A stretch of DNA of 64,000 nt from an uncultured Bryobacter sp. (lineage in GTDB: Bacteria; Acidobacteriota; Terriglobia; Bryobacterales; Bryobacteraceae): the NCBI GenBank assembly GCA_964387685.1, contig CAYLXK010000024.1, positions 7,149 through 71,148 on the forward strand. The letters are read 5' to 3'. Positions 29,481 through 56,976 of the stretch are shown piece by piece; the stretch's first letter is position 1, and each line of letters starts with the position of its first letter. The position numbers and the translations under genes were made by a program. The notes under the pieces were generated by a model. The model was not told the DNA's origin, made no database searches, and saw only the letters and a list, made by a program, of their open reading frames with translations.

Positions 29481-29490
29481 GGTCGTAGCC

Positions 29491-36232: not shown

Positions 36233-36242
36233 CGAGCGCTTG

Positions 36243-36258: not shown

Positions 36259-36283
36259 GCCGGGGCTGAGCTAAGGTTTGGGG

Positions 36284-38563: not shown

Positions 38564-39946
38564 GTGTCCTTGCCCCCGCAACTTTCGCTTGCCATTGTGG
38601 ACGATAACCTGGACAGCCTGGAGCTCATGCAGGAGGCACTGCACGAGGAAGGAATCGAGGTTCACTACTTCAGCGTGCCTGAAGAGGGGCTGGAGTTCAT
38701 TCTGCAAAAGCGGCCGCAGATCGTTATGACGGACTTGGTGATGCCGCGCCTGGACGGTATGGCCATGCTGGATCGCATCATGGCGGTGGATCCGACGATC
38801 GATGTGATCCTGATGACCGCCTACTATTCGACGGAGTCCGCGGTGGAGGCGATCCGGAAGGGTGCGACAGACTATCTGGACAAGCCGATTTCCGTAGAGA
38901 CGTTGCGCAAGAGGGTGGGCAATTTAGCGCGGATGCATCGGGCGAGATTGCGGGCGCTGGATCCGCAACAGAACTACCCAAATGGCCACGAGTTTGAAGG
39001 GATGATCGGCAATAGTCCGGAAATGTGGAAACTCTACGCGCAAATCCAGCGGGTGGCGCCGCATTTTCGGACGTTGCTGGTTCAGGGAGCGACCGGGACC
39101 GGTAAGGAACTGGTGGCAAGAGCGCTACATCGTTTAAGCGGAGTGCGGGGAGAGCTGGTGGCGCTGAATTGCTCGGCGGTGGTGGAGACGTTGTTTGAGA
39201 GCGAGCTATTCGGGCACGTGAAGGGGGCCTTCACGGGAGCGACGGGAAACAAAACGGGCCTGTTTGAGCACGCGCACGAGGGTACCCTGTTTCTCGACGA
39301 GATTGGGGATATGCCGCTGGCGACGCAAGCCAAGCTGTTGCGCGCGGTGCAGCATCAGGAGGTGCAGGCCTTGGGGGCGCTAACGGCGCGGAAGGTGGAG
39401 GTGCGGGTGATTGCGGCCACGCACCGGGATCTGCGGGCGATGATTCTGGAAGGACGATTCCGCGAAGATTTGTTTTACCGTTTGGCGATGGTGGAGTTGC
39501 ATGTGCCGAGCCTGCTGCAGCGCAACGGGGATGTGGAATTGCTGGCGCGTAGCCTGACGCGGAAGTGGGCTAAACAATATGGGCGGGAACTACAGGGTTT
39601 GACGCCCCGAGCCATGACGGTGTTGAAGCGCCATTTGTGGCCGGGCAACGTGCGGGAACTGGAGAACGTAATTGGGCACGCGGCGATGATGACGCGGGGG
39701 CCGCAAATTGATGTGGCGGATTTTCCGGGATATTTGATTCGGGGCGAGCCAGGAATGGGCGAAGGGAAGCGGCGCGCGGGGGCCGGGGAGGACGCGGGCG
39801 GCCTGGCGGGTCTGGCGGAGCGGGAAAAGGAATTGCTGGTTGAGGCCTTGAATAAGAGCGGAGCCAACCAGAGCCGCGCGGCCCGGATTCTACAGATTAG
39901 CCGGGATAAGCTGCGCTACCGGATGAAGAAGTACGACCTGGACTAG
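38564..39946 (+). CDS. Sigma-54-dependent NtrC-family response regulator (HupR/HoxA-like position)
   Basis: Receiver ([13 protein letters not shown]). AAA+ ([27 protein letters not shown]). Fis-type HTH ([21 protein letters not shown]). GTG start 9 nt after the hypF stop. Confidence 0.85.
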
Positions 39947-41900: not shown

Positions 41901-42883
41901 CGCAAGAAGTCCCGGCTAATGTGAGAGCCATGCACCTTGGAGTGGCACACCGTGCAGTTTTGGTAGACGGGCAAGCGCAGGTCGTGAAAGCCGGTGGGAA
42001 CGGTTCCAAGCGTGCCGGAGCGGTTAGAGAGGGCAGGGGTGTTGGCGTGGCATTCGAGACAGAGGTTGCTGACTTGGGCGCGATTCAGAAGGCGGGGATT
42101 GGCCGAGCCATGATTCTCGTGGCAAGCGGAGCAGCCTTCGAGGCGAATAGGGGCGTGCTCAAAGACGAAGGGACCGCGCTTGTCGGCGTGGCACTTGAAG
42201 CAACCGGGTTCGGCGTTCGTGGTGCGGGCGGTAGTGTTAAGGCCGAAGGGCCGTGAAGTGCCGTGGGGATTGTGGCAATCGATGCAGGACATGGCGCCCG
42301 CGGGGACGGCGTGGCCATGGGGGCGCTGGAAGGAAGCCCAGGCGCTGGCGTGGCAGGTGGAACAGAGTTCATTGACGCGCGTGGCCCGGGAGGTAGGAAG
42401 AGCCAAGCGGCTCAGTGACGCGGGGGATTGAGGCGTGAAATCCCGAAAGAGGGGAACGGAGGAATCGTTTAAGGCATGGTGAACCGAGTGACAAGAGACG
42501 CAGGAGACTTGTACCTTGGCGTGGGAACCGCTGATGCGGCCGGCGTGGGTGGCCTGATTCTTGTGGCAGGACAAGCAGGAAGAGTCCGCCTCGCGGGGCG
42601 TGGCTTTGCTGTGATTGAGAATGAACTTGGCTTCGGCGGCTTCGCCGTGCTTTAAGCCCGGCCCGTGGCAGGATTCGCAGGACTGGCCTTTCCAGCCGCG
42701 GACGGTGTCCGTTTCCACTTTGCCGTGGCGAGATTTCAAGAAGGCCTTGCCGAGGTCCTCATGGCAAACCAGGCAGGCTTCGGTGCCGGCGTAGCCCTCT
42801 TTGTCCGTGCGCGCTTTTTTGGGCGCAGCGAAGGTGGCGGCAGCCAGCACAAAGAAAATCGCCGAGGCGACCAGGGGCCGCAT
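41897..42883 (-). CDS. MtrA/DmsE-family periplasmic decaheme c-type cytochrome
   Basis: 328 aa, signal peptide, ten CxxCH sites. Blocks collinear with Shewanella MtrA as I recall it: CESCHGPGLKH, CIDCHNPHG, CFKCHADKRGPFVFEHAP...CSACHENHGS...CLECHA, and C-terminal CTVCHSKVHGS. Confidence 0.85.
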   Translation of the reverse strand: MRPLVASAIFFVLAAATFAAPKKARTDKEGYAGTEACLVCHEDLGKAFLKSRHGKVETDTVRGWKGQSCESCHGPGLKHGEAAEAKFILNHSKATPREADSSCLSCHKNQATHAGRISGSHAKVQVSCVSCHSVHHALNDSSVPLFRDFTPQSPASLSRLALPTSRATRVNELCSTCHASAWASFQRPHGHAVPAGAMSCIDCHNPHGTSRPFGLNTTARTTNAEPGCFKCHADKRGPFVFEHAPIRLEGCSACHENHGSANPRLLNRAQVSNLCLECHANTPALSNRSGTLGTVPTGFHDLRLPVYQNCTVCHSKVHGSHISRDFLR

Positions 42884-42884
42884 G

Positions 42885-44924
42885 CTATTGAGCGTGAACT
42901 CTGGCCACGGAGAACTCGGCGTTGGGGCCGTGGCAGACGGTGCAGCTCTCCCCCAGCGGCGCGGTGTTCAGTTGCGCGTGGGCCGCCGCCTCCTTGGAGG
43001 TGTGGCAACTGAGGCAGGCGGCCGAGGTGGCCCCGGGCGTGGTCAGCCAAGCTCGCGGGTCCGTGACGGGCAGCAGATTTGGCCGCAGGGGCAGGTTCTG
43101 CGAATTATTGACGTGGCAGGTGCTGCAATTGGCGGCGGTGGTGGGGAAGCCGATGTTACTGAAGTCGTTGACGGAGGCGTTAAAACCGTAAATGATGAGC
43201 GGCCGGCCCTGTTCCTTGCCGGTATGGATCCGGTGGATCATCGAGGCAAAGCTGATGCTTTCATTGGGGGCCTGGGCGGCGGGACGGCGAGCGGAGTCCG
43301 TCATGGTGGAGTTGTGGCAAACAACGCACTCGGAAATTTCATTGCGGTTGCGGCCGTGGGCTTCGATGCGCGTGTGGCAGACATTGCACTTCTCGGTGGT
43401 TACGACTTGGCGACGGGGCTCGACCCGGGAAGAGTCCACGCTGAAATAGGTAATGACATTTTTGAGGGGATCGCGGACGGTGGTGGGAATGCGGCCGGGA
43501 CCTTCAAAAGAAACGTTGCGGTAGCCTTCGGCGCTGATGGAGTAGGTGCCCTGGGCGTCGCTGGGGATGGCGCGAGCAAAGCGGTGCGACGCGGTGCCGC
43601 TGGGGGAAAGGGTATCGGTGCGGGAGGCTTCCGACCAGTACGCGGTGTAATCGGGCGCGGGCCCGGCGAGAATGAGCGAAAGCGCCGTCATATCTGTTGG
43701 GGCAAGAATCTTGCCTTCGGAATCCTTGAGGCGATAGGTAATCGTCGGGTTTTGGCCGGGCGCGGTATCGCGTACCTCAAGCAGCTCGATCGTCTGGCCT
43801 TTGAGATTTTTCGAAAACTCGGGAACGACATGGGCGCCCTTGACGGAGATATCCCACTCGCGTTCTCCCTCGGGCCGGTGGCACTGGGAGCAACGGGAAT
43901 CGTCGGTCTGGGCAATGTGACCTTTGCCGGCGGCGAAATCAATGCCGTCGTGGCAGGAGCCGCAAGCGGCGCGGGTCGGGTTAAACAGGGCCGTGGCCTG
44001 GGACGCCGCGTTGGGGCCGGATTGGGTATGGCAAGCGGCACAATTGCGTGGGTTGGCCGGGAAGCCGATGGTGGAGTAATCGTGAAGGGTCTGCTGGTTT
44101 CCGATGATGGTGTACTTCGTGCCGGCCCGGACGCTGGGCAGATCCTTACCCATGTGGATCTTATGGGTCAGCACGGTCATGTCGACGGTATTGCCGGTGT
44201 CGGGGTCTACGGTTTGGGGGGTATGGCAGAGAACGCACATTTCCATGCCGCGGCGGGAGCCGCCATGGGCGGATAGCGTCACGTGGCAGGTTGTGCACGA
44301 AGCGGTTTTGATGACGTCGCGCACCTGAGTGACAGGGCTGCCGTCGGGGACGAAATCGAAGGTGGCGCTGGCGTAGTTGGTGCCGAGGTCGAAGGCGGTG
44401 AGGTTACGGTTGGAGTAGGCCCCAATAGTGTGAGTAGCGGTGCGGTCGAAATTGGCGGGGGCGCGGGTGCGGAAGGTGTAAGTGTACTCGCCGTCGTCGT
44501 TCTTGACCCAGGTGCCACCGGTGTCGGCGGCCGCCTGCGTGGCCGAGACGCGGGTAATGGGACTGGTTTGGATGCGCGTGGTGTAGGAGGTGTAAACGGA
44601 TTGATCTTTGGGCAAGAAGGCGGCGACAAAACTGATGGAGACGGGGCCGGGCGTGAAGACGCCTTCGCGGTCGAGAGGAACCCCCAAGGGATCGGTGATG
44701 CGGACCCGCGCCGCCATCGAGCCGTCGGGATTGACGACGGCGGCGACGATCTTCAAGTTAAGGCCCGGCCGGACGAAATTGATCGTCTTTTCGTCGGCGT
44801 AGAAGGCCTTCTCCAGTTCGCTGAAACTGCGCTTGCCCAGGCCTGTGGCGAGAGAGGCGGCGGCGAGAAGCAGCCCCACGACGGTGGGCCAGAAGTATCG
44901 ATGGGTTCGAAAAAACATGCTCAT
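42885..44924 (-). CDS. MtrC/OmcA-like decaheme c-type cytochrome (5+5 heme architecture)
   Basis: Ten CxxCH in two clusters of five (ORF residues 269-408 and 572-724), each preceded by a 160-210 aa heme-free region. Paralogous halves (THKIHMGK / IHRIHTGK). Start MSMFF overlaps the upstream stop (ATGA). ATG 44918 is an alternative start with GGAGGA 5 nt upstream. Confidence 0.65.
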   Translation of the reverse strand: MSMFFRTHRYFWPTVVGLLLAAASLATGLGKRSFSELEKAFYADEKTINFVRPGLNLKIVAAVVNPDGSMAARVRITDPLGVPLDREGVFTPGPVSISFVAAFLPKDQSVYTSYTTRIQTSPITRVSATQAAADTGGTWVKNDDGEYTYTFRTRAPANFDRTATHTIGAYSNRNLTAFDLGTNYASATFDFVPDGSPVTQVRDVIKTASCTTCHVTLSAHGGSRRGMEMCVLCHTPQTVDPDTGNTVDMTVLTHKIHMGKDLPSVRAGTKYTIIGNQQTLHDYSTIGFPANPRNCAACHTQSGPNAASQATALFNPTRAACGSCHDGIDFAAGKGHIAQTDDSRCSQCHRPEGEREWDISVKGAHVVPEFSKNLKGQTIELLEVRDTAPGQNPTITYRLKDSEGKILAPTDMTALSLILAGPAPDYTAYWSEASRTDTLSPSGTASHRFARAIPSDAQGTYSISAEGYRNVSFEGPGRIPTTVRDPLKNVITYFSVDSSRVEPRRQVVTTEKCNVCHTRIEAHGRNRNEISECVVCHNSTMTDSARRPAAQAPNESISFASMIHRIHTGKEQGRPLIIYGFNASVNDFSNIGFPTTAANCSTCHVNNSQNLPLRPNLLPVTDPRAWLTTPGATSAACLSCHTSKEAAAHAQLNTAPLGESCTVCHGPNAEFSVARVHAQ

Positions 44925-46318
44925 CCTCCAAGTTCCTGTATTGCCTTCAGATTCTTCTCTTCGACGCCCAGGACCTTGTGGCAGGCCTCGCAATCCTGGG
45001 TAATGGCTTTGCCGGGCGTTTTTGCCTTCAAGTCGTCGCCATGACAGCGGAAGCAACCGGGTGAGGCCGTGTGCCCGACATGTTGGGGATAGGTTCCCCA
45101 AGTGATTTTCATTTCCGGAAAGACGTTGCGGCGGTGGAGTGTGGCCAGTTCCTGGCTGGCTTGGCCGAGCGTGGAGGCGTGGGTCGCGAGGGCCGCCGGT
45201 TGATGAAGGCGGTAGTAGCGATTCAGCTCCTCGGCGATGGCTTTAGAGGGGTCGGGCTTGGAGGCGTAGTCTTTGGCCAGGACTTCCAAGGCGGCCCGAC
45301 GGAAGAAAGGAATCGATTGGGGAAGCCGGCCCTGGGTCATGGCGAGATCGATGGCCCGTTCAGGATTCTCAAATTCATGGGCGGGCCGATTGTGGCAATC
45401 GAGACAATCCATGCGCCGGCTAAAGGCGGCTTTGGCTTTGCCCGAGCTAAAGTCGGCCGACTCATAGGTGTCGGTTTGACCTCCCTTGGTCACGCGAACG
45501 GCCAGGATGGTTTCGCGCTTAGGGTCGGCGGCGTCATAGTCGATGCTCAGGCCGCGGCCCATGTGGGCGCCGTGAATGCCTTGGCCCTCGGCGCCCCCCA
45601 GTTTTAGCAGTAGCGCGGTCTCCAGGCGTTCGCCCTGGTCGTCGAACTGGGTGCGCCGCCAGAGGCGATTGCCGTAGTCGTGATTGCGGGAGTGGCAGTT
45701 CTCACAGGTTTCCGAGGCCGGTTTGAGGGCATGAGGTGGAGAGGGAATGGGACGGTTGTATCCGCCGGTCATCACGAGAAAGAGTTGCCGGGTTCCATTG
45801 AGCTTGGCGCGGATGGCGTTGCCCGCGCCTTCGCCAATGTGGCAGGCGACGCATTTAACTTGCGCATGGGAACCAGCCTGATAGGCGCGATGTTCGGGAT
45901 CCATGACATGGCAAGCGGTGCCGCAGAAGTTGGTGCTCTCCATGTAATGGACGGCCTGGTAGGTAAGCGCCCCGCCGATGACGAGATTGACAAAGGTTGC
46001 TCCCGCGATAAAGACGAGAAAGCGCCGGATCTTGGGGTTGCTGAGCTCGATTTTTTCCGGCCAGTGGATTTGGTGATCCGGGGCCTCGCGCCGGCGCTGC
46101 ATGCTGATGCCGATGGGCACCAGGAGGAGCCCTAGGAAGAAGGCGGCGGGTAGAGCGACAAACTGGAGAATGCCGAGGTATCCGGAGGCCTCGCTCGCGC
46201 CCGTCAGGAAGATCCAGAGGACCATAGCCGAAAGCACGAAGAAGAAGCCGGTGCGGCTGATCCAGTTGTCGGTTAAATAGAGTACCGGCAAGAGCCAGCG
46301 CTGTGCGAATTTCCCCAT
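44921..46318 (-). CDS. Membrane-anchored NapC/NirT-like multiheme cytochrome (candidate quinol dehydrogenase)
   Basis: 465 aa with three N-terminal TM helices. NapC-like TNFCGTACHVM...SHAQVKCVACH. Five CxxCH (CVACH, CENCH, CLDCH, CFRCH, CEACH) plus one CxxxCH (CGTACH). Confidence 0.7.
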   Translation of the reverse strand: MGKFAQRWLLPVLYLTDNWISRTGFFFVLSAMVLWIFLTGASEASGYLGILQFVALPAAFFLGLLLVPIGISMQRRREAPDHQIHWPEKIELSNPKIRRFLVFIAGATFVNLVIGGALTYQAVHYMESTNFCGTACHVMDPEHRAYQAGSHAQVKCVACHIGEGAGNAIRAKLNGTRQLFLVMTGGYNRPIPSPPHALKPASETCENCHSRNHDYGNRLWRRTQFDDQGERLETALLLKLGGAEGQGIHGAHMGRGLSIDYDAADPKRETILAVRVTKGGQTDTYESADFSSGKAKAAFSRRMDCLDCHNRPAHEFENPERAIDLAMTQGRLPQSIPFFRRAALEVLAKDYASKPDPSKAIAEELNRYYRLHQPAALATHASTLGQASQELATLHRRNVFPEMKITWGTYPQHVGHTASPGCFRCHGDDLKAKTPGKAITQDCEACHKVLGVEEKNLKAIQELGG

Positions 46319-46357
46319 TTTGCGTGTCTGAAGTTTGCGTGGTCCGAGGGAATTGGA

Positions 46358-46675
46358 CTATTGCTTGAGAGTGCGGACGTAGGCCAAGATGTTGGCGACA
46401 TCCTTTTCGACGGCGGGCATGGCCTTCATCTTGCCGACGCCTTCGAGGGTTTCTTTCTTCAGGGCAGCGTCGGACTTAGCCTGGACCTCTTTCGAGCCGA
46501 GGTGCTTCATTTCGACCTTGAGCATTTTGCCGATGGCGGCGTTGGGGGCGCCGTCGGCGCCATGGCACTTCTTGCAGGCGGCGTCATAAGCGGTCTTACC
46601 GGACGCCAAGTCGGCGGCGGAGGCCAAAGCGGACACCCAGACGAGAGAAAGCAGCAAGGGCAGAGTTCGTTTCAT
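46358..46675 (-). CDS. Periplasmic monoheme class I cytochrome c
   Basis: 105 aa from ATG 46675. Signal MKRTLPLLLSLVWVSALASA. Single CKKCH. Distal Met candidate in GKMKAMP. Confidence 0.8.
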   Translation of the reverse strand: MKRTLPLLLSLVWVSALASAADLASGKTAYDAACKKCHGADGAPNAAIGKMLKVEMKHLGSKEVQAKSDAALKKETLEGVGKMKAMPAVEKDVANILAYVRTLKQ

Positions 46676-46687
46676 CGCGGCTCTACA

Positions 46688-46703
46688 AGCAAGTGAGTGG
46701 CCA
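46688..46703 (-). promoter_or_regulatory. Sigma-54-like -24/-12 element upstream of the cytochrome operon (weak; implies a near-leaderless mRNA)
   Basis: The minus strand reads TGGCCACTCACTTGCT with correct GG-N10-GC spacing. The GC lies only 13 nt before the ATG. Confidence 0.2.
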
Positions 46704-46766
46704 TTCAAAAGTAGCTGGAAAGTTGAAGCTTGACGATAGTTGGGTGGGGGAAAATACACAAAGATT

Positions 46767-46780
46767 GGGGAAAATTCCCC
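46767..46780. promoter_or_regulatory. Inverted repeat GGGGAA-aa-TTCCCC in the divergent control region (candidate activator site)
   Basis: 6-bp arms with a 2-nt spacer, preceded by a partial direct copy TGGGGGAAAAT. Located about 60-75 bp upstream of the hyaA sigma-54-like promoter. Confidence 0.25.
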
Positions 46781-46840
46781 AAGCGGGAAATCGTTTAGTG
46801 GAGAACAGGGGCAATCTCGCAGAGAGAAGGAGGTTTTTAT

Positions 46841-46856
46841 TGGCCCCCTGATTGCA
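46841..46856 (+). promoter_or_regulatory. Candidate sigma-54 (-24/-12) promoter for the hydrogenase operon
   Basis: TGGCCCCCTGATTGCA against the consensus TGGCAC-N5-TTGCA. About 28 nt upstream of ATG 46885, with AAAGGAAG as RBS. Confidence 0.45.
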
Positions 46857-46884
46857 CAGTAGGGACTGGCTGAAAGGAAGTGGA

Positions 46885-48000
46885 ATGATGCTGGCCACCG
46901 CACCCGCTTCAACGTCTCAAGTTCTTCAACGGCGAGGAATTAGCCGCCGCGACATACTCACTTTTTGCACTATGACGGCCGCGTCCCTCGGCCTGCCCCC
47001 GGAGGCGGCGGCGCAAATCGCCGAGGCGCTGGAAACAAAGCCGCGCATCCCGGTGCTTTGGATTCATGGGTTGGAATGCACGTGTTGCAGCGAATCGTTT
47101 CTGAGGTCGACGCACCCGGTTGCGCAGGACATTCTGTTCAACATGATTTCGCTGGATTATGACGACACGCTCCAGGCCGCGGCGGGCCATCAGGCCGAAG
47201 AGATCCGCAAGCGAATCATGAAGGAGTACAAAGGCCAATACCTGCTGGCGGTGGAAGGCAACGCGCCTACCAACGACGGGGGCGTCTATTGCACGGTGGG
47301 CGGCGAAACGTTTACGAGCATTCTGGAAGAGGCCGCGGCGGGCGCCAAGGCCATCCTGGCCTGGGGCAGCTGCGCGTCCAACGGATGTGTGCAGGCGGCT
47401 TACCCAAACCCGACCGGCGCGAAGCCCGTGTACAAGATGATCACCGACAAGCCGGTCATCAACGTGCCCGGATGCCCGCCGATTGCGGAAGTGATGACCG
47501 GGGTATTGAGCTATCTCCTGACCTTCGACCGGATTCCGGAACTGGATGCGTTCCGGCGGCCGAAGATGTTTTACGGGCAGCGGATTCATGACCGCTGCTA
47601 CCGAAGGAGCTACTTTGACGCGGGGCAATTTGTTGAGAAGTGGGACGACGAGGGGGCGCGGAAGGGTTGGTGCCTTTACAAGATGGGGTGCCGCGGTCCG
47701 TCAACCTACAATGCCTGCGCTTCGATGAAGTGGAACGAGTGTGTTTCGTTCCCGATCGGTTCTGGGCATGGCTGTTTCGGATGCTCGGAAGACAATTTTT
47801 GGGATAACGGACCGTTCTATGAGCGCTTGGCGAATATTCCGGTGCCGACCACGGACCTGACGGCGGACCGGGTAGGTCTGGGCTTGAGCGCCGTGGTAGC
47901 CGGGGCGATTGCCGCGCATGGAGTGGCGGCGCTAGCCAAACACAATCTGACGCAGATCAAAGCAGCCCCCGCAAGCAGTACGACGAAGCCGGAAGCCTAG
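46885..48000 (+). CDS. hyaA: [NiFe] hydrogenase small subunit, group 1 (Hyd-1/MBH-like), Tat signal, C-terminal TM anchor
   Basis: [12 protein letters not shown] Tat motif. [33 protein letters not shown]-terminal helix [20 protein letters not shown]. Near-collinear with E. coli HyaA as I recall it. Confidence 0.9.
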
Positions 48001-48009
48001 GAGCCAGCT

Positions 48010-49737
48010 ATGTCTACCCGAGTCGTAGTAGACCCGATTACCCGCATTGAAGGACATCTGCGGGTGGAAGCGATCCTGAACGATCGGAATGTGATTGGCG
48101 ACGCCTTGTCCAGCGGGACGATGTGGCGCGGGATCGAATTGATTGTGCAGGGGCGGGACCCAAGAGAGGTATGGGCCTTCGCCGAACGGATTTGCGGGGT
48201 GTGTACGACGATCCACGCGCTGGCCAGCGTGCGCAGCGTGGAGAACGCGCTCGGAATCGAGATCCCGAAAAACGCAAGCATTATCCGCCAACTGATGAAC
48301 TTTACGCAGATCGTGCAGGATCACGTGATTCACTTTTATCACCTGCATGCGTTGGACTGGGTGGATGTGGTGTCGGCGCTGAAAGCGGATCCGGCGGCGA
48401 CCTCGGCGCTGGCGCAGAAGGTGTCGCCGCACTGGCCCAAGTCCTCGCCGGGCTACTTTGCCGATACGGCGGCGACGTTGAAGAAGTTTGTCGATTCCGG
48501 TCAACTCGGTATCTTTCAGAATGCCTACTGGGGCCATCCCGCCTACAAGCTGCCGCCAGAGGCGAATCTGATGGCGGTGGCGCACTATCTCGAAGCGCTG
48601 CAGTGGCAAAAGGAAGTGGCCAAGATCCACACGGTATTTGGAGGCAAGAATCCGCATCCCAACTATCTGGTGGGGGGCGTGGCGTGCGCGATCAGTCTCG
48701 AGGGCGACAACGCGCCGATCAATATGGAGCGGCTGAATTTTGTCAAGGATCTGATCACGGAAGCGATCCGGATCGTCGAGCAGCTTTATATTCCGGACCT
48801 AGTGGCGATCGCGAGCTTTTATCCGGAATGGACGAAGATCGGCGGGGGGCTGGGTAGCTTCATGTCCTACGGCGACATGCCGACGGACTACGATTTGGGC
48901 AATCCGTCGAAGTTCCGTTTTCCGCGCGGGGTGATTCTGAACAAGAAACTGGGCGAAGTGCTGCCGCTGGACCTGGCGGACTTTGGCCAGGTGCAGGAGG
49001 AGGTGACGCACTCCTGGTACGAGTACGGGAACGGGAAGCAGACCTTGCACCCATGGGAAGGCGAGACGAAGGCAAAGTATTCGGGGCCGAAACCGCCTTA
49101 TAAGCAATTGGATGAAACGCAAGGATACTCCTGGGTGAAGACCCCTCGCTGGCGAGGGCACGCGGTGGAAGTAGGGCCGCTGGCGCGGATGGTGATCGGC
49201 TATGCCTCGGGCAATGGGCCGATTCGGGATGCCGTCAAGTGGGGATTGGAGACGACGAAATTGCCGATCGAGGCGTTGTTTTCGACACTCGGACGGACCT
49301 TTGCGCGGGGCCTCGAGACGAAGCTGGCCGTGCACTGGATGAGGGACGAGTTCAACAACTTGATGGCGAATCTGAAAGCGGGCGATTTGACGACTGCGGC
49401 GACAGCGAAATGGGATCCGTCCAGTTGGCCGAAGGAGGCCAAGGGAGTGGGCTTTGTGGAGGCGCCGCGCGGCTCGTTGGGACATTGGATCCGGATCCAG
49501 GATCAGAAGACGGCGTCCTACCAGATCGTGGTGCCGTCGACATGGAACGCCTCGCCTCGCGATGCCAAGGGCCAGCACGGCGCCTATGAGGCTGCGCTGA
49601 TTGGCACGCCAATGGTGGACGGGATGAAGCCCGTCGAGATACTGCGGACGATTCATTCGTTCGACCCCTGCCTGGCCTGCGCGACGCATGTAATGGGCGC
49701 GGGCGGTGAAACCCTGGCCAAGGTAATTGTGCGTTAG
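48010..49737 (+). CDS. hyaB: [NiFe] hydrogenase large subunit, group 1
   Basis: VVDPITRIEGH. L1 motif ERICGVCTTIH. L2 motif SFDPCLACATH followed by a 15-aa tail for endopeptidase cleavage. Confidence 0.95.
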   Translation: MSTRVVVDPITRIEGHLRVEAILNDRNVIGDALSSGTMWRGIELIVQGRDPREVWAFAERICGVCTTIHALASVRSVENALGIEIPKNASIIRQLMNFTQIVQDHVIHFYHLHALDWVDVVSALKADPAATSALAQKVSPHWPKSSPGYFADTAATLKKFVDSGQLGIFQNAYWGHPAYKLPPEANLMAVAHYLEALQWQKEVAKIHTVFGGKNPHPNYLVGGVACAISLEGDNAPINMERLNFVKDLITEAIRIVEQLYIPDLVAIASFYPEWTKIGGGLGSFMSYGDMPTDYDLGNPSKFRFPRGVILNKKLGEVLPLDLADFGQVQEEVTHSWYEYGNGKQTLHPWEGETKAKYSGPKPPYKQLDETQGYSWVKTPRWRGHAVEVGPLARMVIGYASGNGPIRDAVKWGLETTKLPIEALFSTLGRTFARGLETKLAVHWMRDEFNNLMANLKAGDLTTAATAKWDPSSWPKEAKGVGFVEAPRGSLGHWIRIQDQKTASYQIVVPSTWNASPRDAKGQHGAYEAALIGTPMVDGMKPVEILRTIHSFDPCLACATHVMGAGGETLAKVIVR

Positions 49738-49746
49738 GAGCGGCTT

Positions 49747-50487
49747 ATGTCCTCACAAATTCAGGACCCGCAGACTCAAGCCATGGCCGCGCCGGGCGAG
49801 GCGGAAAGGCCGGAATCCCGCTACGTGTGGGAGAGCCCGGTGCGGATCTTTCATTGGATGATTGCGCTGGCGATTCCCGTGCTGCTGGCCACGGGCTTTT
49901 ATATAGCCTGGCCTTTTGCCTCCGTGCAGGGGGAGGCGACGGGAAACTTCTTGATGGGGAGGATGCGGCAGATTCATTTTGGGGCGGGCTACGTGTTGCT
50001 GGCCGCGTTTGCCATTCGGATTTACTGGTTTTTTGCGGGCAATCATTATGCGCGGTCGGGTTTTCCCTTCGTCTGGAAGAAGGCCTGGTGGACGCATCTG
50101 GGCGAGCAGGCGCGCGAGTACCTCACAATTCGCCTCACGAAGCGCTTTGTGGGCCACAACCAGTTGGGCGCCTTGAGCTACCTGCTCTTTGTGGGACTCA
50201 TGGGCGGCGCAGAAATCGCCACCGGCTTTGCGATGTATAGCGAATCGAATCCGGGAGGATTCTGGAGCCGGGTCTTCGGCTGGGTGATTCCGTTCTGTGG
50301 CGGTTCCTATCAAACCCACCAATGGCATCATTTCTTTGCCTGGGGCATTCTGCTGTTTATTGCGATTCACATTTATATCGTGGTGCTGGACAGCATTTAC
50401 CTCGATAACGGAATGGTGGGCAGTATCTTTACCGGACGCAAGTTTGTAAGGAGCACGGATGCCGACAGCAAGACCTGGATCAGTTAA
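49747..50487 (+). CDS. hyaC: Ni/Fe-hydrogenase b-type cytochrome subunit
   Basis: PVRIFHWMIALAIPVLLATGFYI. Four TM helices with conserved His (HFGAGY, HQWHHFF). Confidence 0.85.
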   Translation: MSSQIQDPQTQAMAAPGEAERPESRYVWESPVRIFHWMIALAIPVLLATGFYIAWPFASVQGEATGNFLMGRMRQIHFGAGYVLLAAFAIRIYWFFAGNHYARSGFPFVWKKAWWTHLGEQAREYLTIRLTKRFVGHNQLGALSYLLFVGLMGGAEIATGFAMYSESNPGGFWSRVFGWVIPFCGGSYQTHQWHHFFAWGILLFIAIHIYIVVLDSIYLDNGMVGSIFTGRKFVRSTDADSKTWIS

Positions 50488-50965
50488 GCCGGTGCTGGTG
50501 TTGGGCTTGGGCAATGTCTTATTGACCGACGACGGCTTTGGGCCCACGCTACTCGAGCGGTTGCGGAGGCGGAGCGCCGCCGGGGCGAAGGTGGAGTTTG
50601 TCGATGGGGGAACGATGGGTTTGGGGTTGCTAAGCTTGCTGGCCGAGCGGCGATGCCTGCTAATTTTGGATGCGTTTCGCGCGGGCCGGCCGGCGGGGAC
50701 GCTGATGGTGGAGCGGAACTTCGAGTGGCAGCAGGCGGGCAAGGTCTTGGGTCGAAGCGCGCACGACGGGAACGCGGCTGGTTTGCTGGCGGTGGCGACG
50801 CTGACGGGCGACTTGCCGCCGCGTCTGGCTTTGGTGGGGGTCGAACCGCAGACCTTGGATACCGGGGTGGGCTTAAGCGACACGGTGGAAGCGCAGCTGC
50901 CCGAGGCGGAGCGGGAAGCCTGGCGATTGATTGAGGAATTGGTGGAGTTGTCCGTATGTGTTTAG
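50459..50965 (+). CDS. hyaD: Hydrogenase maturation endopeptidase (HyaD/HybD/HupD family)
   Basis: [17 protein letters not shown] and LILDA motifs. Confidence 0.85.
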
Positions 50966-51225
50966 CGATACCGGGGCAGGTGATGCGGATCGAGGAGATT
51001 GGCTTCCACCGGGTAGCCCAGGTCTGCTTTGGCGGAGTGGAGCGGCCGGTGTTTGTGGATTTCGTGCCCGAGGCGGTAGCGGGCGACTATGTGCTGGTAC
51101 ACGTGGGCTTCGCGCTCAGCAAGATCGACGAAGAAGAGGCCAAGGCGAGCTTCGCATTAATGGAACGACTGGGATTCATGGAGCCGCTGGACGAGGCCGA
51201 AGAAGTGACGCAGGAGGACCCATGA
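50956..51225 (+). CDS. hypC: HypC/HybG/HupF-family hydrogenase chaperone
   Basis: [10 protein letters not shown]-terminus with the essential Cys2. 89 aa. Confidence 0.9.
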
Positions 51226-52325
51226 GATACGTCGATGAGTATCGGGACCCGGCGCTAGCTCAGGCGGTACTGCGTGAGATCCGCGCGCGCGTAACGCGGC
51301 CTTGGGTGTTGATGGAGATCTGCGGCGGGCAGACCCACAGCCTGATGCGCTATGGAATCGACGAGCTGCTGCCGCCGGAACTGGAACTGGTGCATGGGCC
51401 GGGCTGCCCGGTTTGCGTTACGCCGCTGGAAATGATCGATAAGGCGCTGGAGATCGCCGCGCGGCCCGAAGTGATTTTTCTCACCTATGGCGACATGATG
51501 CGCGTGCCGGGATCGGCGAGCGATTTATTGGAGGTGAAGGCGCGCGGAGGCGACGTTCGCTTTGTGTACTCGCCCATGCAGGCTGTGGAGGTGGCGCGAA
51601 AGAATCCGGGGCGGCAGGTGGTTTTCTTTGCGGTGGGATTTGAGACGACGGCGCCCGCTAACGCCATGGCCGTCTGGCGGGCGGCGAAGGAAGGGATCGG
51701 AAATTTTTCGTCGCTGGTCTCGCATGTGCTGGTGCCGCCGGCGTTAATGGTGCTGCTCGGTTCAGCCCAGAACCGGGTGCAAGGGTTGATCGCGCCGGGC
51801 CACGTATGTACGGTGGAAGGCTGCCGCGATTATGAGGCGCTGGTGGAGCGCTTCCGAGTGCCGGTGGTGGTGGGGGGCTTTGAACCATTGGATTTGTTGG
51901 AAGCGATTCTGCTGCTGGTAAGGCAGTTGGAGGAAGGGCGCTGGCTGCTGGAGAACCAGTACAAGCGAGCCGTGAGCGCGGAAGGCAATGCGGTGGCGCG
52001 CGGGCTGGTGGCGGAAGTCTACGAGGTGTGCGATCGGAAGTGGAGAGGGATCGGAGAGTTGGCGCGGAGCGGCATGCGGCTGCGGGAAAAGTATGCGGGA
52101 TTTGACGCCGAAAGGGTTTTCGGGCTGACGGGGGAAGGCGTGGCCGAAGATGTGGAGTGCCGGAGCGCGCAGGTGCTGATGGGCCAAATGAAACCGACGG
52201 ATTGCCCCGCCTTCGGAGTGCGCTGCACGCCGGAAAAGCCCCTGGGCGCGCCCATGGTCTCGAGCGAAGGGGCCTGCGCGGCCTACCATCGCTATAAGCC
52301 GCAACTGGTGCAGGTGGCGCGGTGA
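51222..52325 (+). CDS. hypD: Hydrogenase maturation factor HypD
   Basis: [27 protein letters not shown] and FETTAP. ATGA overlap with hypC. The long ORF from 50931 is an artefactual extension. Confidence 0.9.
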
Positions 52326-53392
52326 AGCGCGTGGACGCCGACGATGTGACGAATTGGACCTGCCCGCTGCCGCTGCGCCAGTACGGGCAGATCGTGATGG
52401 GGCATGGAGGAGGGGGCAAGCTTTCCGCGGATCTGGTAGAGCATCTGATTTTGCCGGCCTTGGGCGGGCAGAGCGCGGATTGTCTGGGGGACTCCACCGT
52501 CCTGCCGCCGCTGACCGGGCGCATGGCGATTTCGACGGACTCCTACGTCGTGCGGCCGATCCTGTTTCCGGGCGGCAGTATTGGCGAGTTGGCCGTGAAC
52601 GGGACGGTTAACGATTTAGCGATGTCCGGAGCGTGGCCCCTGTATATGACCGCCGGGCTGATTCTGGAGGAGGGCTTGGCGCTAACCACGCTGGCCGAGG
52701 TGCTGAACAGAATGGGGCAAGCCGCGCGGCAGGCGGGGGTGCGGATCGTCGCCGGCGATACCAAGGTGGTGGGCCGGGGGCAGGCGGACGGCATCTTTAT
52801 TCATACGGCGGGCGTGGGGGAAGTGCCGGAAGGTGTGGAGATCGGGCCTGGGAACGCGCGGCCTGGCGACGTGATTCTCTTGTCGGGAAGCGTGGGAGAT
52901 CATGGGATGGCGATCCTCTGCGCGCGGGAGGAACTGGAGTTTGACGGCGTCATCCAGAGCGACTGCGCCGCTTTGCACCGGTTGGTGCGGGCGATGCTGG
53001 AGGCGGCAGGACCGGGCGCCGTGCGGGTGTTGCGGGATCCAACTCGCGGAGGGCTCGCGGCAGCGCTGCATGAGATTGCGCGTAGTAGCCGGGTAGGGAT
53101 GGAGATTGAGGAAGGGACGGTGCCGGTAGACGACGCGGTCCGTTCCGCGTGCGAATTGATGGGGCTGGACCCTCTTCAGGTCGCCAGCGAGGGCAAGTTG
53201 GTGGCGATGGTAGACGCGGGGGCCGCCCGCCAAATCCTGGCCGCGATGCGGCTGGATCCCTTGGGAGAGAGAGCCGTCGAGATCGGCCGCGTGACGGACC
53301 GGCATCCTGGGATGCTGACGGCGCGAACGGCGATAGGAGGGCAACGCGTGATCCCCATGCCAATCGGGGAGCAGTTGCCGCGGATCTGCTAA
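52322..53392 (+). CDS. hypE: Hydrogenase maturation carbamoyl dehydratase HypE
   Basis: AIR-synthase-like fold ([21 protein letters not shown]) and the diagnostic C-terminal PRIC. GTG start overlaps the hypD stop. Confidence 0.9.
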
Positions 53393-54823: not shown

Positions 54824-54982
54824 CTACCAGGCGGCGACGCTGCCGTCGGGGTGGAAGACGCGGGCCATCGAACTTGTATTTGGCGACTTGTTTTTCGTCG
54901 AGGTCGAAGCCGAGGCGGGGCTTGGTGGGAAGCGGATATTTGCCGTTGACCATGCGCATGGCGGGGAAGCCGAACGATTCGG
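54824..54982 (-). pseudogene. Frameshifted relic of the 3' end of the enolase-superfamily gene at 55642-56976
   Basis: About 158 bp near-identical to 55643-55814, apart from a 14-nt deletion that shifts the frame and a few substitutions. It encodes ...FGFPAMRMVNGKYPLPTKP-LGFDLDEKQVAKYKF... / ...MARVFHPDGSVAAW split across two frames. Confidence 0.75.
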
Positions 54983-55083: not shown

Positions 55084-55464
55084 TCACTTTACTGGCATGC
55101 AGAAGTACAGAGTGTTCCCGTCTGGATCAGTCACCGCGAATTCCCGAAGGCCCCATGTTTGATCCAGTGGCGCCGTGTGAATAGGAGACTCAGGTCGCTG
55201 TGTCGTGTCTAGGCCCCGCGTGCGAAAGGTCGCAAAACGCTCATCAACGTCATCCACAAACATTCGGTTGACCGAACCGAAAACGCCGTCGCCCGAATGG
55301 CTGGAAAGCTGTATTTCAGCGCCGTCTCGAACCAGACCAATCACTCCGCTGGCCATCTCTCGATCTTCGTATCCGGGCCATTTGCGCTCGAAGTCAAGAA
55401 ATCCTGTGTAGAAGTGTAAGGATCTTTCCAAATTGCTCGATTTGATCACCGGTACAATCTTCAT
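55084..55464 (-). CDS. Glyoxalase/bleomycin-resistance (VOC) family protein, Ble-like
   Basis: VPVIKSSNLERSLHFYTGFLDFERKW ... QTWGLREFAVTDPDGNTLYF parallels the Sh ble / Tn5 Ble pattern (VPVLTARDV..FW...LGF ; QPWGREFALRDPAGNCVHF). Visibly more AT-rich than its flanks. Confidence 0.75.
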   Translation of the reverse strand: MKIVPVIKSSNLERSLHFYTGFLDFERKWPGYEDREMASGVIGLVRDGAEIQLSSHSGDGVFGSVNRMFVDDVDERFATFRTRGLDTTQRPESPIHTAPLDQTWGLREFAVTDPDGNTLYFCMPVK

Positions 55465-55641
55465 GACTGAAGTCCTCAGCCAATTAGGATACTCTCTCGT
55501 CACCATAAATCGCCGCAGGCTGCGGGATGACTCGTGTGAAGTCGCAGAGTTTAGAGTTATCGAAATCGATACCCGAGAAATCTGCGAGGGACAGATTGGC
55601 CGAATGGTTGGTTCCGGTTGGAGTAAGCGATCGGTGTGAAG

Positions 55642-56976
55642 TTACCAGGCGGCGACGCTGCCATCGGGGTGGAAGACGCGGGCCATCGGGCGCGTGCCCT
55701 CGAACTTGTATTTGGCGACTTGTTTTTCGTCGAGGTCGAAGCCGAGGCCGGGCTTGGTGGGAAGCGGATACTTGCCGTTGACCATGCGCATGGCCGGGAA
55801 GCCGAACCATTCGGCCCAGATCTTCTCCTTCACGCCGGCGTCGACGCCGGAGCAGATTTCCTGGACGAGGAAATTCGGCATGGCGGCATCGACATGAACG
55901 CTGGCCAGGGCGCCGATGGGGCCTTCGCAGGCGTGGGGGGCGACCTTTACGCCCGAGGCGTCGCAGAGCGCGCCAATCTTCCACAGGGCCGTAATGCCCC
56001 CGCAGTGGTTGATGTCCGTTTGGATGATGTCGACGATGCCGAGCTCGACAAGCTCGCGGCAGTTGTAGCTGGCGACGAGGCGTTCGCCCGTGGCAATCGG
56101 CACCTTGGTGCGTTTGGCGATGCGCTGCATGGCCTTGACGTTCTCGGGCGGGCAGGGCTCTTCGATGAAGAGGAGCTTGAAGGGCTCCATTTCGCGGCAG
56201 AGGATGCTGGCGACGGCGGGGGAGGTCTTGGCGTGGAAGTCGATGCCGATGTCGATGTCGTCGCCTAAATTGACGCGCAGGGTTTCGACATGCTTGACGG
56301 CGCGGGAGATGGCCGAGTGCGTCTCGATCCATTCGTAATATCCCGGGATGCCGCCCTTGATGGCCGTGACGCCGAGCTCCTTGGCCTTGGCGCGAACTTC
56401 GCGCATTTGCTCGGGCGTATTGGCGCGGACGTGATAATAGCCGCGGACCCCGGCGGGATCGTAGGGGCCGCCGAGCAGCTTGTAAACGGGTTGGTTCAGG
56501 ATTTTGCCGCGGATATCCCAAAGCGCCTGATCGATGGCGGCCATGGCGGAGCCAATGACGGGCCCCGCGCGGTAGAAGCTATGCACGTACATGGATTGCC
56601 AGTGGTGCTCCACCGGCATGGGGTCGGCTCCAATGAGCAATTCCTTGAAATCCTCGATGCAGGAAAGCGTCGCGGCGGCTTTGCCCTCCAGAGTGCCTTC
56701 GCCCCAGCCGTAGACGCCCTGGTTGGTTTCTATTTTGACGAAGACATAAGGCCGGTCGGCTTGTTCCGGAGTAGGCAGGGTGACGCCAAAAGTCTTGATC
56801 GCCGTGATGCGGAAGTTGGAGCCGAGGGGATAGAGCGCCGCGGCGCCTAAGGGGCCGGTGGCCGCGCGGTTGGGATCGTTTTGGGGGGATTGCGGCGCGA
56901 GCGCGCAAGCGCAGCCGAGGCCCGCGTTAATCGAGAAAAAGTCGCGGCGGTTGAGGGGTTTCAGAGGGGATTTCAT
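55642..56976 (-). CDS. Enolase-superfamily dehydratase (galactonate/mannonate dehydratase-like) with Tat-type signal
   Basis: GVYGWGEGTLEG, AIDQALWDIRGK, IDFH, FIEEP and ERL motifs. N-terminus MKSPLKPLNRRDFFSINAGLGCACALA. Confidence 0.85.
   Translation of the reverse strand: MKSPLKPLNRRDFFSINAGLGCACALAPQSPQNDPNRAATGPLGAAALYPLGSNFRITAIKTFGVTLPTPEQADRPYVFVKIETNQGVYGWGEGTLEGKAAATLSCIEDFKELLIGADPMPVEHHWQSMYVHSFYRAGPVIGSAMAAIDQALWDIRGKILNQPVYKLLGGPYDPAGVRGYYHVRANTPEQMREVRAKAKELGVTAIKGGIPGYYEWIETHSAISRAVKHVETLRVNLGDDIDIGIDFHAKTSPAVASILCREMEPFKLLFIEEPCPPENVKAMQRIAKRTKVPIATGERLVASYNCRELVELGIVDIIQTDINHCGGITALWKIGALCDASGVKVAPHACEGPIGALASVHVDAAMPNFLVQEICSGVDAGVKEKIWAEWFGFPAMRMVNGKYPLPTKPGLGFDLDEKQVAKYKFEGTRPMARVFHPDGSVAAW
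55643..55814. repeat. Direct-repeat partner (intact copy) of 54825-54982
   Basis: TACCAGGCGGCGACGCTGCC(A/G)TCGGGGTGGAAGACGCGGGCCATCG...GCCGAAC(C/G)ATTCGG. The copies are spaced about 818 bp apart. Confidence 0.85.

Follow-up and report, generated by a model that had tools for sequence, protein, structure and literature searches.

Gene content of the locus

The window considered here, a 64 kb stretch of DNA, comes from an uncultured soil/freshwater acidobacterium (Bryobacteraceae). Positions 46885-53392 hold hyaA-hyaB-hyaC-hyaD-hypC-hypD-hypE, all on the plus strand, and these seven genes overlap or sit at most 10 nt apart; gene calls agree with the original prediction in order and coordinates. 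The genes hypA, hypB and hypF, which went unmentioned in that prediction, are found 9-11 kb upstream of the hya operon, with a 7-kb cytochrome cluster lying between them and hyaABCD-hypCDE. The features of the locus are as follows.

35180-35857, minus: hypB, nickel-insertion GTPase (HypB profile, E=1.8e-55; PF02492)
35861-36250, minus: hypA (PF01155, E=6e-23)
36278-38554, plus: hypF, carbamoyltransferase (HypF profile, E=6e-161; Pfam families of the called gene)
38564-39946, plus: NtrC-family sigma-54-dependent response regulator, candidate hya activator (PF00072, PF00158, PF02954)
39984-46675, minus: MtrCAB-like cluster, divergent from hya, given as context and not part of the hydrogenase (family matches)
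46841-46855, plus: sigma-54-type -24/-12 element TGGCCCCCTGATTGC, 30 nt 5' of the hyaA ATG, with one mismatch to TGGCAC-N5-TTGC
46885-48000, plus: hyaA, [NiFe]-hydrogenase small subunit, 371 aa (PF01058, PF14720; TIGR00391, 508 bits; 3rgw_S, E=1.8e-148)
47083-47085, plus: TGT codon of supernumerary Cys19 (alignment to HoxK and E. coli HyaA)
47386-47388, plus: TGT codon of supernumerary Cys120 (same alignment)
48010-49737, plus: hyaB, [NiFe]-hydrogenase large subunit, 575 aa (PF00374, E=1.5e-227; PDB matches)
49747-50487, plus: hyaC, b-type cytochrome membrane subunit, electrons to quinone (PF01292; TIGR02125, 184 bits against a cut-off of 121.5)
50459-50965, plus: hyaD, large-subunit maturation endopeptidase (PF01750; TIGR00072)
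50956-51225, plus: hypC, the sole HypC/HupF-family gene in the window (PF01455; HypC profile 61 bits, HoxL/HupF profile 28 bits)
51222-52325, plus: hypD (PF01924, E=3e-147)
52322-53392, plus: hypE (PF00586, PF02769; HypE profile, E=2.6e-116)

The MtrCAB-like cluster encodes, in order, a cytochrome c (105 aa), an NrfH/NapC-like five-haem membrane quinol dehydrogenase (465 aa), an OmcA/MtrC-family decahaem protein (677 aa), a DmsE/MtrA-family decahaem protein (328 aa) and a 638-aa protein without a family match, which is a putative MtrB analogue judging by its barrel-like composition. Both decahaem proteins exceed the NCBIfam cut-off, so that the extracellular electron transfer conduit proposed earlier beside the hydrogenase can be specified as Mtr-type. 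Among the related loci, its adjacency to hya is kept only in L001-L004. Window ORFs without a family match are the 638-aa one (39984-41900) and others of 106 aa (13343-13663) and 87 aa (29596-29859).

Transcription of hya appears to be sigma-54-dependent. The pattern TGGC[AC]C-N5-[AT]TGC is kept in four Bryobacter relatives (five genomes with the window), while the surrounding spacer is poorly conserved. The response regulator gene is kept beside the cluster in L001-L003; its product is 34% identical to Cupriavidus HoxA, which is too little to establish orthology.

Cluster ligands and relationships of the two subunits

HyaA starts with a 48-aa twin-arginine (Tat) signal, followed by LETKPR, and ends in a C-terminal membrane anchor. 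It aligns without gaps to both HoxK of Ralstonia (3rgw_S) and HyaA of E. coli (3uqy_S), and the two extra cysteines that had been noticed in it fall exactly on Cys19 and Cys120 of these proteins. The equivalence holds when a standard enzyme is included, since in HybO of E. coli Hyd-2 (group 1c) both positions are Gly. Residue mapping gives a proximal-cluster motif of six cysteines (Cys17/19/20/115/120/149), medial [3Fe-4S] ligands Cys230/249/252 together with Pro242, and distal-cluster ligands His187/Cys190/215/221. All 6+3+4 ligands, Glu76 and Pro242 are kept, and the predicted [4Fe-3S] proximal-cluster signature of O2-tolerant group 1d is thus complete in sequence. HyaB contains the Ni-Fe ligand motifs RICGVC and DPCLAC..H, the His229 equivalent (NPHPN) and, after His560, a 15-aa C-terminal peptide for protease cleavage.

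The membrane-bound hydrogenase (MBH) HoxKGZ of Ralstonia eutropha (Cupriavidus necator) H16 (3RGW, group 1d) is 66% (small subunit) and 60% (large subunit) identical to the window enzyme. Shared residues are the six cysteines of the proximal cluster, Glu76, Pro242 and His229 of the large subunit; each enzyme also has a Tat signal and a C-terminal anchor, and is paired with a cytochrome b and a protease of its own. Nevertheless, the Ralstonia operon goes on with hoxL, O, Q, R, T, V and hypX, all of which the window lacks. The window large subunit is a 'short form' by length comparison, being without the N-terminal extension (about 13 residues in Ralstonia) and the insertions (about 30 residues) of proteobacterial group 1d, and small-subunit residue 118 is Asn instead of the Trp of Ralstonia. 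Hydrogenase-1 of E. coli (HyaABCDEF, 3UQY, group 1d; 60% and 56% identity) has the same hyaABCD order and six-cysteine motif, whereas hyaE and hyaF directly follow hyaD there and hypC does so here.

The best large-subunit match in the PDB is the O2-sensitive Isp-type HynSL of Allochromatium vinosum (3MYR, group 1e), which has the same length and no N-terminal extension; it scores 769 bits, against 768 for Salmonella Hyd-5. In this enzyme the proximal cluster has four cysteines, and Isp1/Isp2 take the place of cytochrome b. The small subunit resembles it far less (329 bits, compared with 498 for MBH and at most 281 for standard group 1b/1c enzymes). In a distance-based (NJ) tree with a single group 1e sequence and a single outgroup, the six-cysteine enzymes are monophyletic with the A. 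vinosum enzyme outside (bootstrap support 94/100 and 88/100). Support for the proteobacterial 1d subclade is 100/100, and the window enzyme is placed in the non-proteobacterial branch.

Distribution of the accessory genes

Profiles for the accessory proteins were built from E. coli, Cupriavidus and Rhizobium proteins and searched against all six-frame ORFs 40 aa or longer; resting on three proteobacterial sequences, they could be escaped by very divergent homologues. Within the window, HyaE/HoxO/HupG, HyaF/HoxQ/HupH, HoxR/HupI, HoxT/HupJ, HypX and HupE gave no match at E<=1, the HoxV/HupK profile matched only hyaB itself, and the HoxL/HupF profile matched only the single hypC, which scored higher as HypC. 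Pfam scans of the called window genes and of 6 kb upstream yielded no accessory gene, and a HoxL-type second HypC was absent from the same sequence. The absence of HyaE/HoxO, HyaF/HoxQ, HoxR, HoxT and HoxV from the window is therefore borne out, and extends over about 70 kb of genome.

Eighty related genome loci from at least five phyla (Acidobacteriota, Planctomycetota, Eisenbacteria, Zixibacteria and the Chlorobiaceae) were compared. Both Cys19 and Cys120 occur in 74 of 76 readable small subunits, so their presence here is not accidental. Accessory genes, including HyaF, HoxR, HoxT and HypX, were found by profile search within 10 kb in 0/80 loci, HyaE-like matches being ordinary thioredoxins only; hyp genes often lie within that distance. 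Six cysteines without HyaE/HyaF, which had been regarded as unusual, are thus the rule for the whole lineage, and a large branch of the family outside the Proteobacteria normally has this helper-free layout. Conversely, 80 metagenome loci fetched with the HyaF profile carried HyaE (72), HoxR (75), HoxT (65) and HoxV (59), and 31/31 of their large subunits belonged to the proteobacterial group 1d subclade. Two features tell the branches apart: at small-subunit position 118, Trp is found in 29/29 accessory-linked but 0/75 accessory-free sequences, and the large-subunit core is longer where the suite is linked (about 583 aa) than where it is missing (about 551 aa). Only the proteobacterial-type subclade has the accessory suite, and the window enzyme belongs to a 'short-form' lineage, free of accessory genes, that is sister to classical group 1d.

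Less certainly, the Chlorobiaceae form one group with the Acidobacteriota/Planctomycetota/Eisenbacteria/Zixibacteria branch, since monophyly of the accessory-free branch including them has moderate support at most (79/100 and 39/100). Their HupSLC/HyaAB enzymes and the group 1d enzyme of Thermoanaerobaculum lie, like that of the window, on the accessory-free, short-form side of the tree, with both cysteines and an SSU-LSU-cytochrome b-protease layout without HyaE/F. Their large subunits are 63-65% (Chlorobiaceae) and 71% (a Thermoanaerobaculum MAG) identical to that of the window. These hosts are anaerobes, the Chlorobiaceae being strictly anaerobic phototrophs; Chlorobi loci, unlike the window, have neither hyp genes nor a cytochrome conduit nearby. 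HydDB places such relatives (Chlorobia, T. aquaticum) in group 1d (PMC8125076, PMC5900883).

HyaE/HyaF/HoxR-type chaperones might be encoded elsewhere in the genome, with maturation proceeding as in Proteobacteria. The separation of hypA, hypB and hypF from the operon gives this some appeal, as does the limited sequence covered, but we consider it improbable: none occurs close by in relatives from several phyla, HyaF, where present, stood in close linkage with HyaE/HoxR/HoxT and with a large subunit of proteobacterial type in all cases sampled, and both hydrogenase subunits carry branch-specific signatures. That an unrelated neighbourhood protein stands in for HyaE/HyaF seems very improbable. 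Window ORFs without a family match could be candidates; however, the hya-hyp operon contains no unassigned gene or gap, the 638-aa protein resembles the outer-membrane barrel of the Mtr cluster, and no unassigned gene is conserved beside the hydrogenase across the 80 loci.

Close homologues of the window hydrogenase all come from MAGs. Lesions were seen in two relatives, namely a disrupted N-terminal region in L012 and a change of Cys19 to Phe in L063. Apart from these lesions and the absence itself, nothing speaks for an operon decaying or non-functional after accessory-gene loss, a reading that is hardly credible given 7/7 intact ORFs with typical codon bias, the conservation of all catalytic and cluster ligands, the recurrence of the identical protein on no fewer than 11 contigs of several sequencing runs, and a large, conserved clade.

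Maturation, oxygen and electron transfer

Taken together, the locus likely encodes a functional six-cysteine uptake hydrogenase of the accessory-free short-form branch that relies on generic maturation only. HyaABC would be a Tat-exported, membrane-bound H2-uptake [NiFe]-hydrogenase of the [4Fe-3S] proximal-cluster lineage (HydDB group 1d), in which electrons taken from H2 reach quinone by way of three Fe-S clusters and cytochrome b. HypA-F and the HyaD protease, all encoded in the window, probably suffice for its maturation. Since the suite is absent across the short-form branch, whose members retain the six cysteines with never a HyaE/F or HoxLOQRTV gene nearby, it would be a lineage-specific addition of the proteobacterial subclade, not needed to build the six-cysteine cluster. 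To our knowledge, no member of the accessory-free branch has been biochemically characterised.

The literature ties the suite to assembly in O2. The genes missing here have been linked to enzyme synthesis in its presence: hupF and hupK are confined to cases of hydrogenase synthesis with O2 present, HupGHIJ are less needed at ultra-low O2, and E. coli makes hydrogenase-1 anaerobically without HupF/HupK (PMC3534401). Their absence argues, if anything, for anoxic or low-O2 maturation, and synthesis of the enzyme probably takes place in anoxic or micro-oxic conditions. Once finished, it is predicted to withstand O2 exposure.

Alternatively, the six cysteines may be an inherited trait unrelated to O2, giving a higher-potential proximal cluster that couples H2 oxidation to quinone and high-potential acceptors in an enzyme that works only anoxically and feeds the Mtr conduit, with O2 tolerance irrelevant or absent in vivo. 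Conservation of the motif in strictly anaerobic Chlorobiaceae points this way, as do the lack of O2-protective maturation genes and HypX in the window and the divergent, possibly co-regulated MtrCAB-like operon. A group 1d enzyme is likewise present in Thermoanaerobaculum aquaticum, which is listed as anaerobic (PMC5900883). Still, this reading is rather doubtful, because the motif gives O2 tolerance in all six-cysteine enzymes tested, namely E. coli Hyd-1, Ralstonia MBH, Aquifex Hase I, Salmonella Hyd-5 and H. marinus MBH (PMC4747160), and because the enzyme also retains two residues that assist the chemistry of the O2 response, Glu76 and His229. It concerns physiological role and not chemistry, and is partly compatible with the preferred reading of a functional enzyme matured generically. 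Because the motif occurs in anaerobes, it is no predictor of aerobic exposure; O2 tolerance is predicted, but the life at oxic/anoxic interfaces envisaged in the original prediction is a weak inference.

The conserved sigma-54 promoter, the divergent MtrCAB-like operon and the nearby activator gene suggest H2-driven extracellular electron transfer. An O2-tolerant-type small subunit with minimal helper genes has already been published for the cyanobacterium Lyngbya confervoides, whose six-cysteine membrane-bound hydrogenase was reported without hoxL/O/Q and with hoxZ and hoxM homologues only; its authors doubted that the enzyme could be active (PMC5186783). The clade-wide conservation of accessory-free loci argues that minimal systems of this kind work.

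The hydrogenase operon and its subunits

Seven plus-strand genes, overlapping or at most 10 nt apart, occupy positions 46885-53392 of the window. Their assignment by Pfam and NCBIfam matches well over threshold bears out the predicted gene order, in which hyaA-B-C-D runs straight into hypC-D-E. The rest of the generic maturation set (hypA, hypB and hypF) likewise lies within the window.

Hydrogenase and maturation genes in the window
46885-48000, + strand: hyaA, small subunit
48010-49737, + strand: hyaB, large subunit
49747-50487, + strand: hyaC, cytochrome b (TIGR02125 above cut-off)
50459-50965, + strand: hyaD, endopeptidase
50956-51225, + strand: hypC, the only HypC-family gene in the window
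51222-52325, + strand: hypD
52322-53392, + strand: hypE
35180-35857, - strand: hypB
35861-36250, - strand: hypA
36278-38554, + strand: hypF

At the gene level, the window holds a complete and intact set of parts for both the generic Hyp pathway and an uptake hydrogenase that is Tat-exported, membrane-anchored and quinone-reducing. At least 11 assembled contigs, drawn from several sequencing runs, carry the identical HyaB protein, and the genomes closest to this one are Bryobacter/Bryobacteraceae MAGs (86-91% identity), which makes the host an uncultured acidobacterium.

HyaA aligns with the Ralstonia MBH small subunit (PDB 3rgw_S) over 305 residues with zero gaps (E=1.8e-148, 66% identity), and the alignment with E. 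coli Hyd-1 (3uqy_S) is likewise gap-free. The mature protein begins LETKPR after a twin-arginine (Tat) signal of 48 residues, and its residue numbers are therefore those of MBH. Cysteine is found at all six proximal-cluster positions (Cys17, Cys19, Cys20, Cys115, Cys120 and Cys149), while positions 19 and 120 are glycine in HybO of the standard group 1c enzyme E. coli Hyd-2 in the same alignment. The ligands of the medial cluster (Cys230, Cys249 and Cys252, with Pro242) and of the distal cluster (His187, Cys190, Cys215 and Cys221) are retained, as is Glu76, a supporting residue for the O2 response. A C-terminal hydrophobic helix serves as membrane anchor. The original prediction had recognized two supernumerary cysteines of O2-tolerant enzymes in HyaA; alignment against Hyd-1, MBH and HybO places them at Cys19 and Cys120, and that observation was correct to the residue. 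HyaA has a further cysteine close to the medial cluster, four residues ahead of Pro242 (KWNECVSFP, window about 47740). Among 49 motif-readable sequences it is confined to 5, those of the window and its four nearest relatives; all others have glycine.

The large subunit HyaB (PF00374, E=1.5e-227) carries the Ni-Fe cysteine motifs RICGVC (residues 60-65) and DPCLAC (552-557). The latter is followed by ATH and a 15-aa tail, the cleavable peptide for HyaD. His229, also a supporting residue for the O2 response, is retained.

Two other stretches of the window were recorded. The 3' end of an enolase-superfamily gene (55642-56976) occurs twice, as a direct repeat of some 160-170 nt (54825-54982 and 55643-55814; 95-98% identity) on either side of a glyoxalase-family gene (55084-55506); a remnant gene or an assembly artefact could account for it. 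The stretch 26358-31668, a few kb away from the hyp genes, encodes signalling proteins: an adenylate/guanylate cyclase of 1019 aa that carries Reg_prop and Y_Y_Y sensor repeats and, after it, a GAF-SpoIIE (PP2C) phosphatase.

Class membership and the accessory-free branch

Judged from its sequence, the enzyme is a six-cysteine, group 1d-type membrane-bound [NiFe]-hydrogenase from a little-studied, accessory-free, short-form branch, of which we know of no characterised representative. Of the features of group 1d, the Ni-Fe cysteine pairs, six cysteines, Glu76/His229, Tat signal, anchor and cytochrome b subunit are present. The typical, though not strictly defining, gene neighbourhood of this group (HyaE/HoxO and HyaF/HoxQ, often with HoxL/R/T/V and HypX) is absent from the window and from 80 related loci.

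Group 1e (Isp-type) enzymes have a four-cysteine proximal cluster, Isp1/Isp2 in place of cytochrome b and no small-subunit anchor. The best PDB match of HyaB is the O2-sensitive A. vinosum group 1e enzyme (769 bits, against 768 for Salmonella Hyd-5 and 702 for MBH). HyaA shows the opposite trend, with 498 bits to MBH and 329 to A. vinosum 3myr_A. This score, together with the six cysteines, hyaC and the anchor, speaks against group 1e, and the discordance between the two subunits arises because the accessory-free large subunit is a short form. A putative placement of HyaB in group 1d would agree with HydDB-based surveys, in which relatives from Chlorobia and Thermoanaerobaculum (64-71% identity to the window's enzyme) are placed in group 1d (PMC8125076, PMC5900883), and HydDB includes non-proteobacterial 1d enzymes (PMC5037454).

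For the accessory genes, profiles of each family were built from the E. coli hya operon, the Cupriavidus pHG1 MBH operon and the Rhizobium leguminosarum hup/hyp cluster, and were run against every ORF of 40 aa or more in the six frames of the window. HyaE/HoxO/HupG, HyaF/HoxQ/HupH, HoxR/HupI, HoxT/HupJ, HypX and HupE gave zero matches there, even at E<=1. The sole window match of the HupK/HoxV profile was hyaB itself, and no HoxL/HupF was found in the window, the score of its one HypC-family gene being that of a HypC. A Pfam scan of the window's called genes and precomputed Pfam annotation of 6 kb upstream returned housekeeping and signalling genes only. The profile search and the Pfam scans thus confirm the predicted absence of the accessory suite from the window.

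Whether this absence sets the genome apart was judged from its relatives. Representatives at 50% identity from a large-subunit search were mostly fragments, and the best full-length match was 53% identical; they were too coarse for placing the clade, and genome loci were therefore used. Scanning one genome per species gave 80 loci with large subunits 63-88% identical, spanning Bryobacteraceae, other Terriglobia, Thermoanaerobaculaceae, Planctomycetota, Eisenbacteria, Zixibacteria, one Anaeromyxobacteraceae and many Chlorobiaceae. Their layout is uniform (small subunit, large subunit, cytochrome b, protease), often with hyp genes next. Both extra cysteines occur in 74 of the 76 readable small subunits, the exceptions being one Cys19-to-Phe variant and one disrupted gene. 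The former comes from a groundwater acidobacterial MAG (L063, small subunit 1435-2550; GLECTFCSESF); in the latter, from another MAG (L012, 4365-5591), the N-terminal motif region is scrambled, perhaps through a frameshift or an error of assembly.

HyaF, HoxR, HoxT and HypX were found within 10 kb at 0 of the 80 related loci. Weak HyaE-like matches came from Chlorobi alone, downstream of the hydrogenase (E 1e-4 to 0.01). The one that was scanned (Chlorobi locus L073) is an ordinary thioredoxin, with 92 bits to PF00085 and 17.5 bits, under the cut-off, to HyaE; the remaining ones are read the same way by extension. The missing helpers are a property of the accessory-free branch and no anomaly of this genome.

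The reverse search started from the helpers. Of 80 metagenome loci retrieved by the HyaF/HoxQ/HupH profile, 72 had HyaE, 75 HoxR, 65 HoxT, 59 HoxV and 59 HoxL. All 26 small subunits from these loci have six cysteines, and all 31 complete large subunits, 53-61% identical to the window's HyaB, cluster with proteobacterial references (100/100 bootstrap). In a HyaF-profile search of a 5.8-billion-protein collection, the best matches listed were of proteobacterial type only.

Neighbour-joining trees of large subunits, rooted on E. coli HybC (group 1c), have the A. vinosum group 1e enzyme as the first branch after the root. The six-cysteine enzymes form one clade (94/100, or 88/100 with metagenome sequences added), which splits into a proteobacterial accessory-linked subclade (100/100) and the accessory-free sequences. 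The window's HyaB lies within this clade on a branch sister to all proteobacterial references; its multi-phylum group has 100/100 support, and the joining of that group with Chlorobi is weaker (79/100 and 39/100).

The two sides also differ in residue 118 of the small subunit, between Cys115 and Cys120 (window codon 47380-47382), which is Trp in 29/29 accessory-linked and 0/75 accessory-free sequences; the latter have Asn (53), Phe (10), His (8) or others (4), and the window has Asn. The large-subunit core measures about 583 residues in accessory-linked and about 551 in accessory-free enzymes, some 30 fewer, and the window's HyaB also has no N-terminal extension. The Tat-signal n-region, the site bound by HoxO/HoxQ, was considered as a further branch marker and gave no clear dichotomy, the motif (S/T)(T/F)Y-x-V-(L/M)-x-x-(H/Q)-G-x-x-RR being common to both branches.

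The Mtr-like neighbour and putative regulation

Divergent from hyaA lies a five-gene, MtrCAB-like operon on the minus strand (39984-46675).

Genes of the MtrCAB-like operon (all within 39984-46675, - strand)
Cytochrome c, 105 aa
NrfH/NapC-like five-haem membrane protein, 465 aa, directly upstream of the MtrC homologue
OmcA/MtrC-family decahaem protein, 677 aa (TIGR03507 478 bits, cut-off 209)
DmsE/MtrA-family decahaem protein, 328 aa (TIGR03508 227 bits, cut-off 192)
Last gene, 638 aa, with signal peptide and barrel-like composition; no Pfam/NCBIfam family

Both decahaem families of the porin-cytochrome conduit score over cut-off; the putative MtrB-type part would be the 638-aa protein, which by its composition resembles an outer-membrane barrel. 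Earlier work has described Mtr clusters in Bryobacterales (PMC8805035; bioRxiv 10.64898/2026.05.27.727921). According to a published survey, mtrCAB of Bryobacterales has no inner-membrane quinol oxidoreductase nearby (PMC8805035); in the window, the NrfH/NapC-like five-haem protein adjoins the MtrC homologue. Besides the window, the four closest Bryobacter MAGs are the only ones to keep Mtr and hydrogenase genes adjacent; one planctomycete does so in part.

The two operons are separated by a spacer of 209 nt (46676-46884).

Elements relevant to regulation
46841-46855, + strand: sigma-54-type -24/-12 element TGGCCCCCTGATTGC, 30 nt ahead of the hyaA start
46689-46703, - strand: second, conserved sigma-54-like element ahead of the cytochrome operon, tentative
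38564-39946, next to hypF: sigma-54-dependent NtrC-family response regulator

The element upstream of hyaA is kept in 4/4 relatives, the rest of the spacer being poorly conserved, and one-mismatch matches to it number just four in the whole window on both strands. The second element is tentative because it lies only 14 nt from the cytochrome c start codon. Between the two, an inverted repeat TTGGGG-N6-CCCCAA is conserved, with compensatory arm changes in one close Bryobacter relative (L001, CTGCGT-N6-ACGCAG). The response regulator is kept in the closest Bryobacter relatives; its identity with HoxA is 34%, ordinary for the NtrC family, and NCBIfam gave no match above cut-off, so that naming it a HoxA orthologue is not warranted. 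Taken together, the conserved element, its rarity in the window and the nearby sigma-54 activator gene reasonably support a putative sigma-54 control of hya. It is an attractive but unproven idea that hya and the Mtr operon are jointly controlled and that H2 would thereby drive extracellular electron transfer.

Maturation, oxygen tolerance and significance

In Hyd-1 and MBH, six cysteines build a [4Fe-3S] cluster able to supply two electrons. By analogy, the six cysteines of the window enzyme would form such a cluster and deliver two electrons, with which the active site would reduce attacking O2 to water and re-activate fast. The mature enzyme is accordingly predicted, from Hyd-1 and MBH, to be O2-tolerant.

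Genes hupF and hupK are confined to bacteria synthesising hydrogenase in the presence of O2, HupGHIJ-type proteins are adaptations to making the small subunit under O2 and are less important when O2 is ultra-low, and E. coli Hyd-1 has no HupF/HupK and is tolerant all the same (PMC3534401). That the entire accessory suite and HypX are missing from the window therefore suggests assembly of the enzyme under anoxic or micro-oxic conditions. The distribution of the suite further suggests that it is an add-on of the proteobacterial subclade and not a requirement for the six-cysteine cluster. The same helper-less pattern was reported in one genome in a study of cyanobacteria, where enzyme activity was doubted (PMC5186783). 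Strong conservation across the branch argues that minimal helper-free systems are functional.

Chlorobiaceae are strictly anaerobic, and the six-cysteine motif is equally conserved in them; the anaerobe T. aquaticum also has a group 1d enzyme (PMC5900883). The life at oxic/anoxic interfaces put forward in the original prediction is thus possible, but it is not implied by the motif, and the original interpretation as a whole is partly supported. Alternatively, the cluster may mainly set a high operating potential, suited to coupling with quinone and high-potential acceptors.

A wider reading can be offered as a tentative and rather doubtful proposal. Hya and the MtrCAB-like operon would form one sigma-54-controlled module, in which electrons from H2 pass through a six-cysteine hydrogenase made without dedicated small-subunit chaperones to quinone, the NrfH-like quinol dehydrogenase and the outer-membrane decahaem conduit, and on to extracellular Fe(III), Mn(IV) or humics, in a host that could ride out O2 pulses; more generally, the [4Fe-3S] cluster would self-assemble with generic Fe-S and Hyp machinery in the accessory-free short-form branch, which would then represent the smallest gene set found in nature for an O2-tolerant hydrogenase.

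O2-tolerant hydrogenases are sought for fuel cells and light-driven H2 production, and their transfer to new hosts is hampered by the many helper genes of Ralstonia, Rhizobium and E. coli. With hyaD and hypA-F only, a large, conserved branch that is abundant in the environment retains the six-cysteine signature, which suggests that the special cluster is independent of those helpers. The branch also offers natural operons of compact size, some 6.5 kb with hypABF in addition, as candidates for heterologous expression. For hydrogenase maturation and engineering, the helper-free property is moderately interesting. The result also tempers the common habit in metagenomic surveys of taking "group 1d" or "six cysteines" to mark aerobic H2 oxidation, and the link to an Mtr conduit provides a testable route to H2-fuelled metal or humic reduction in Acidobacteriota.
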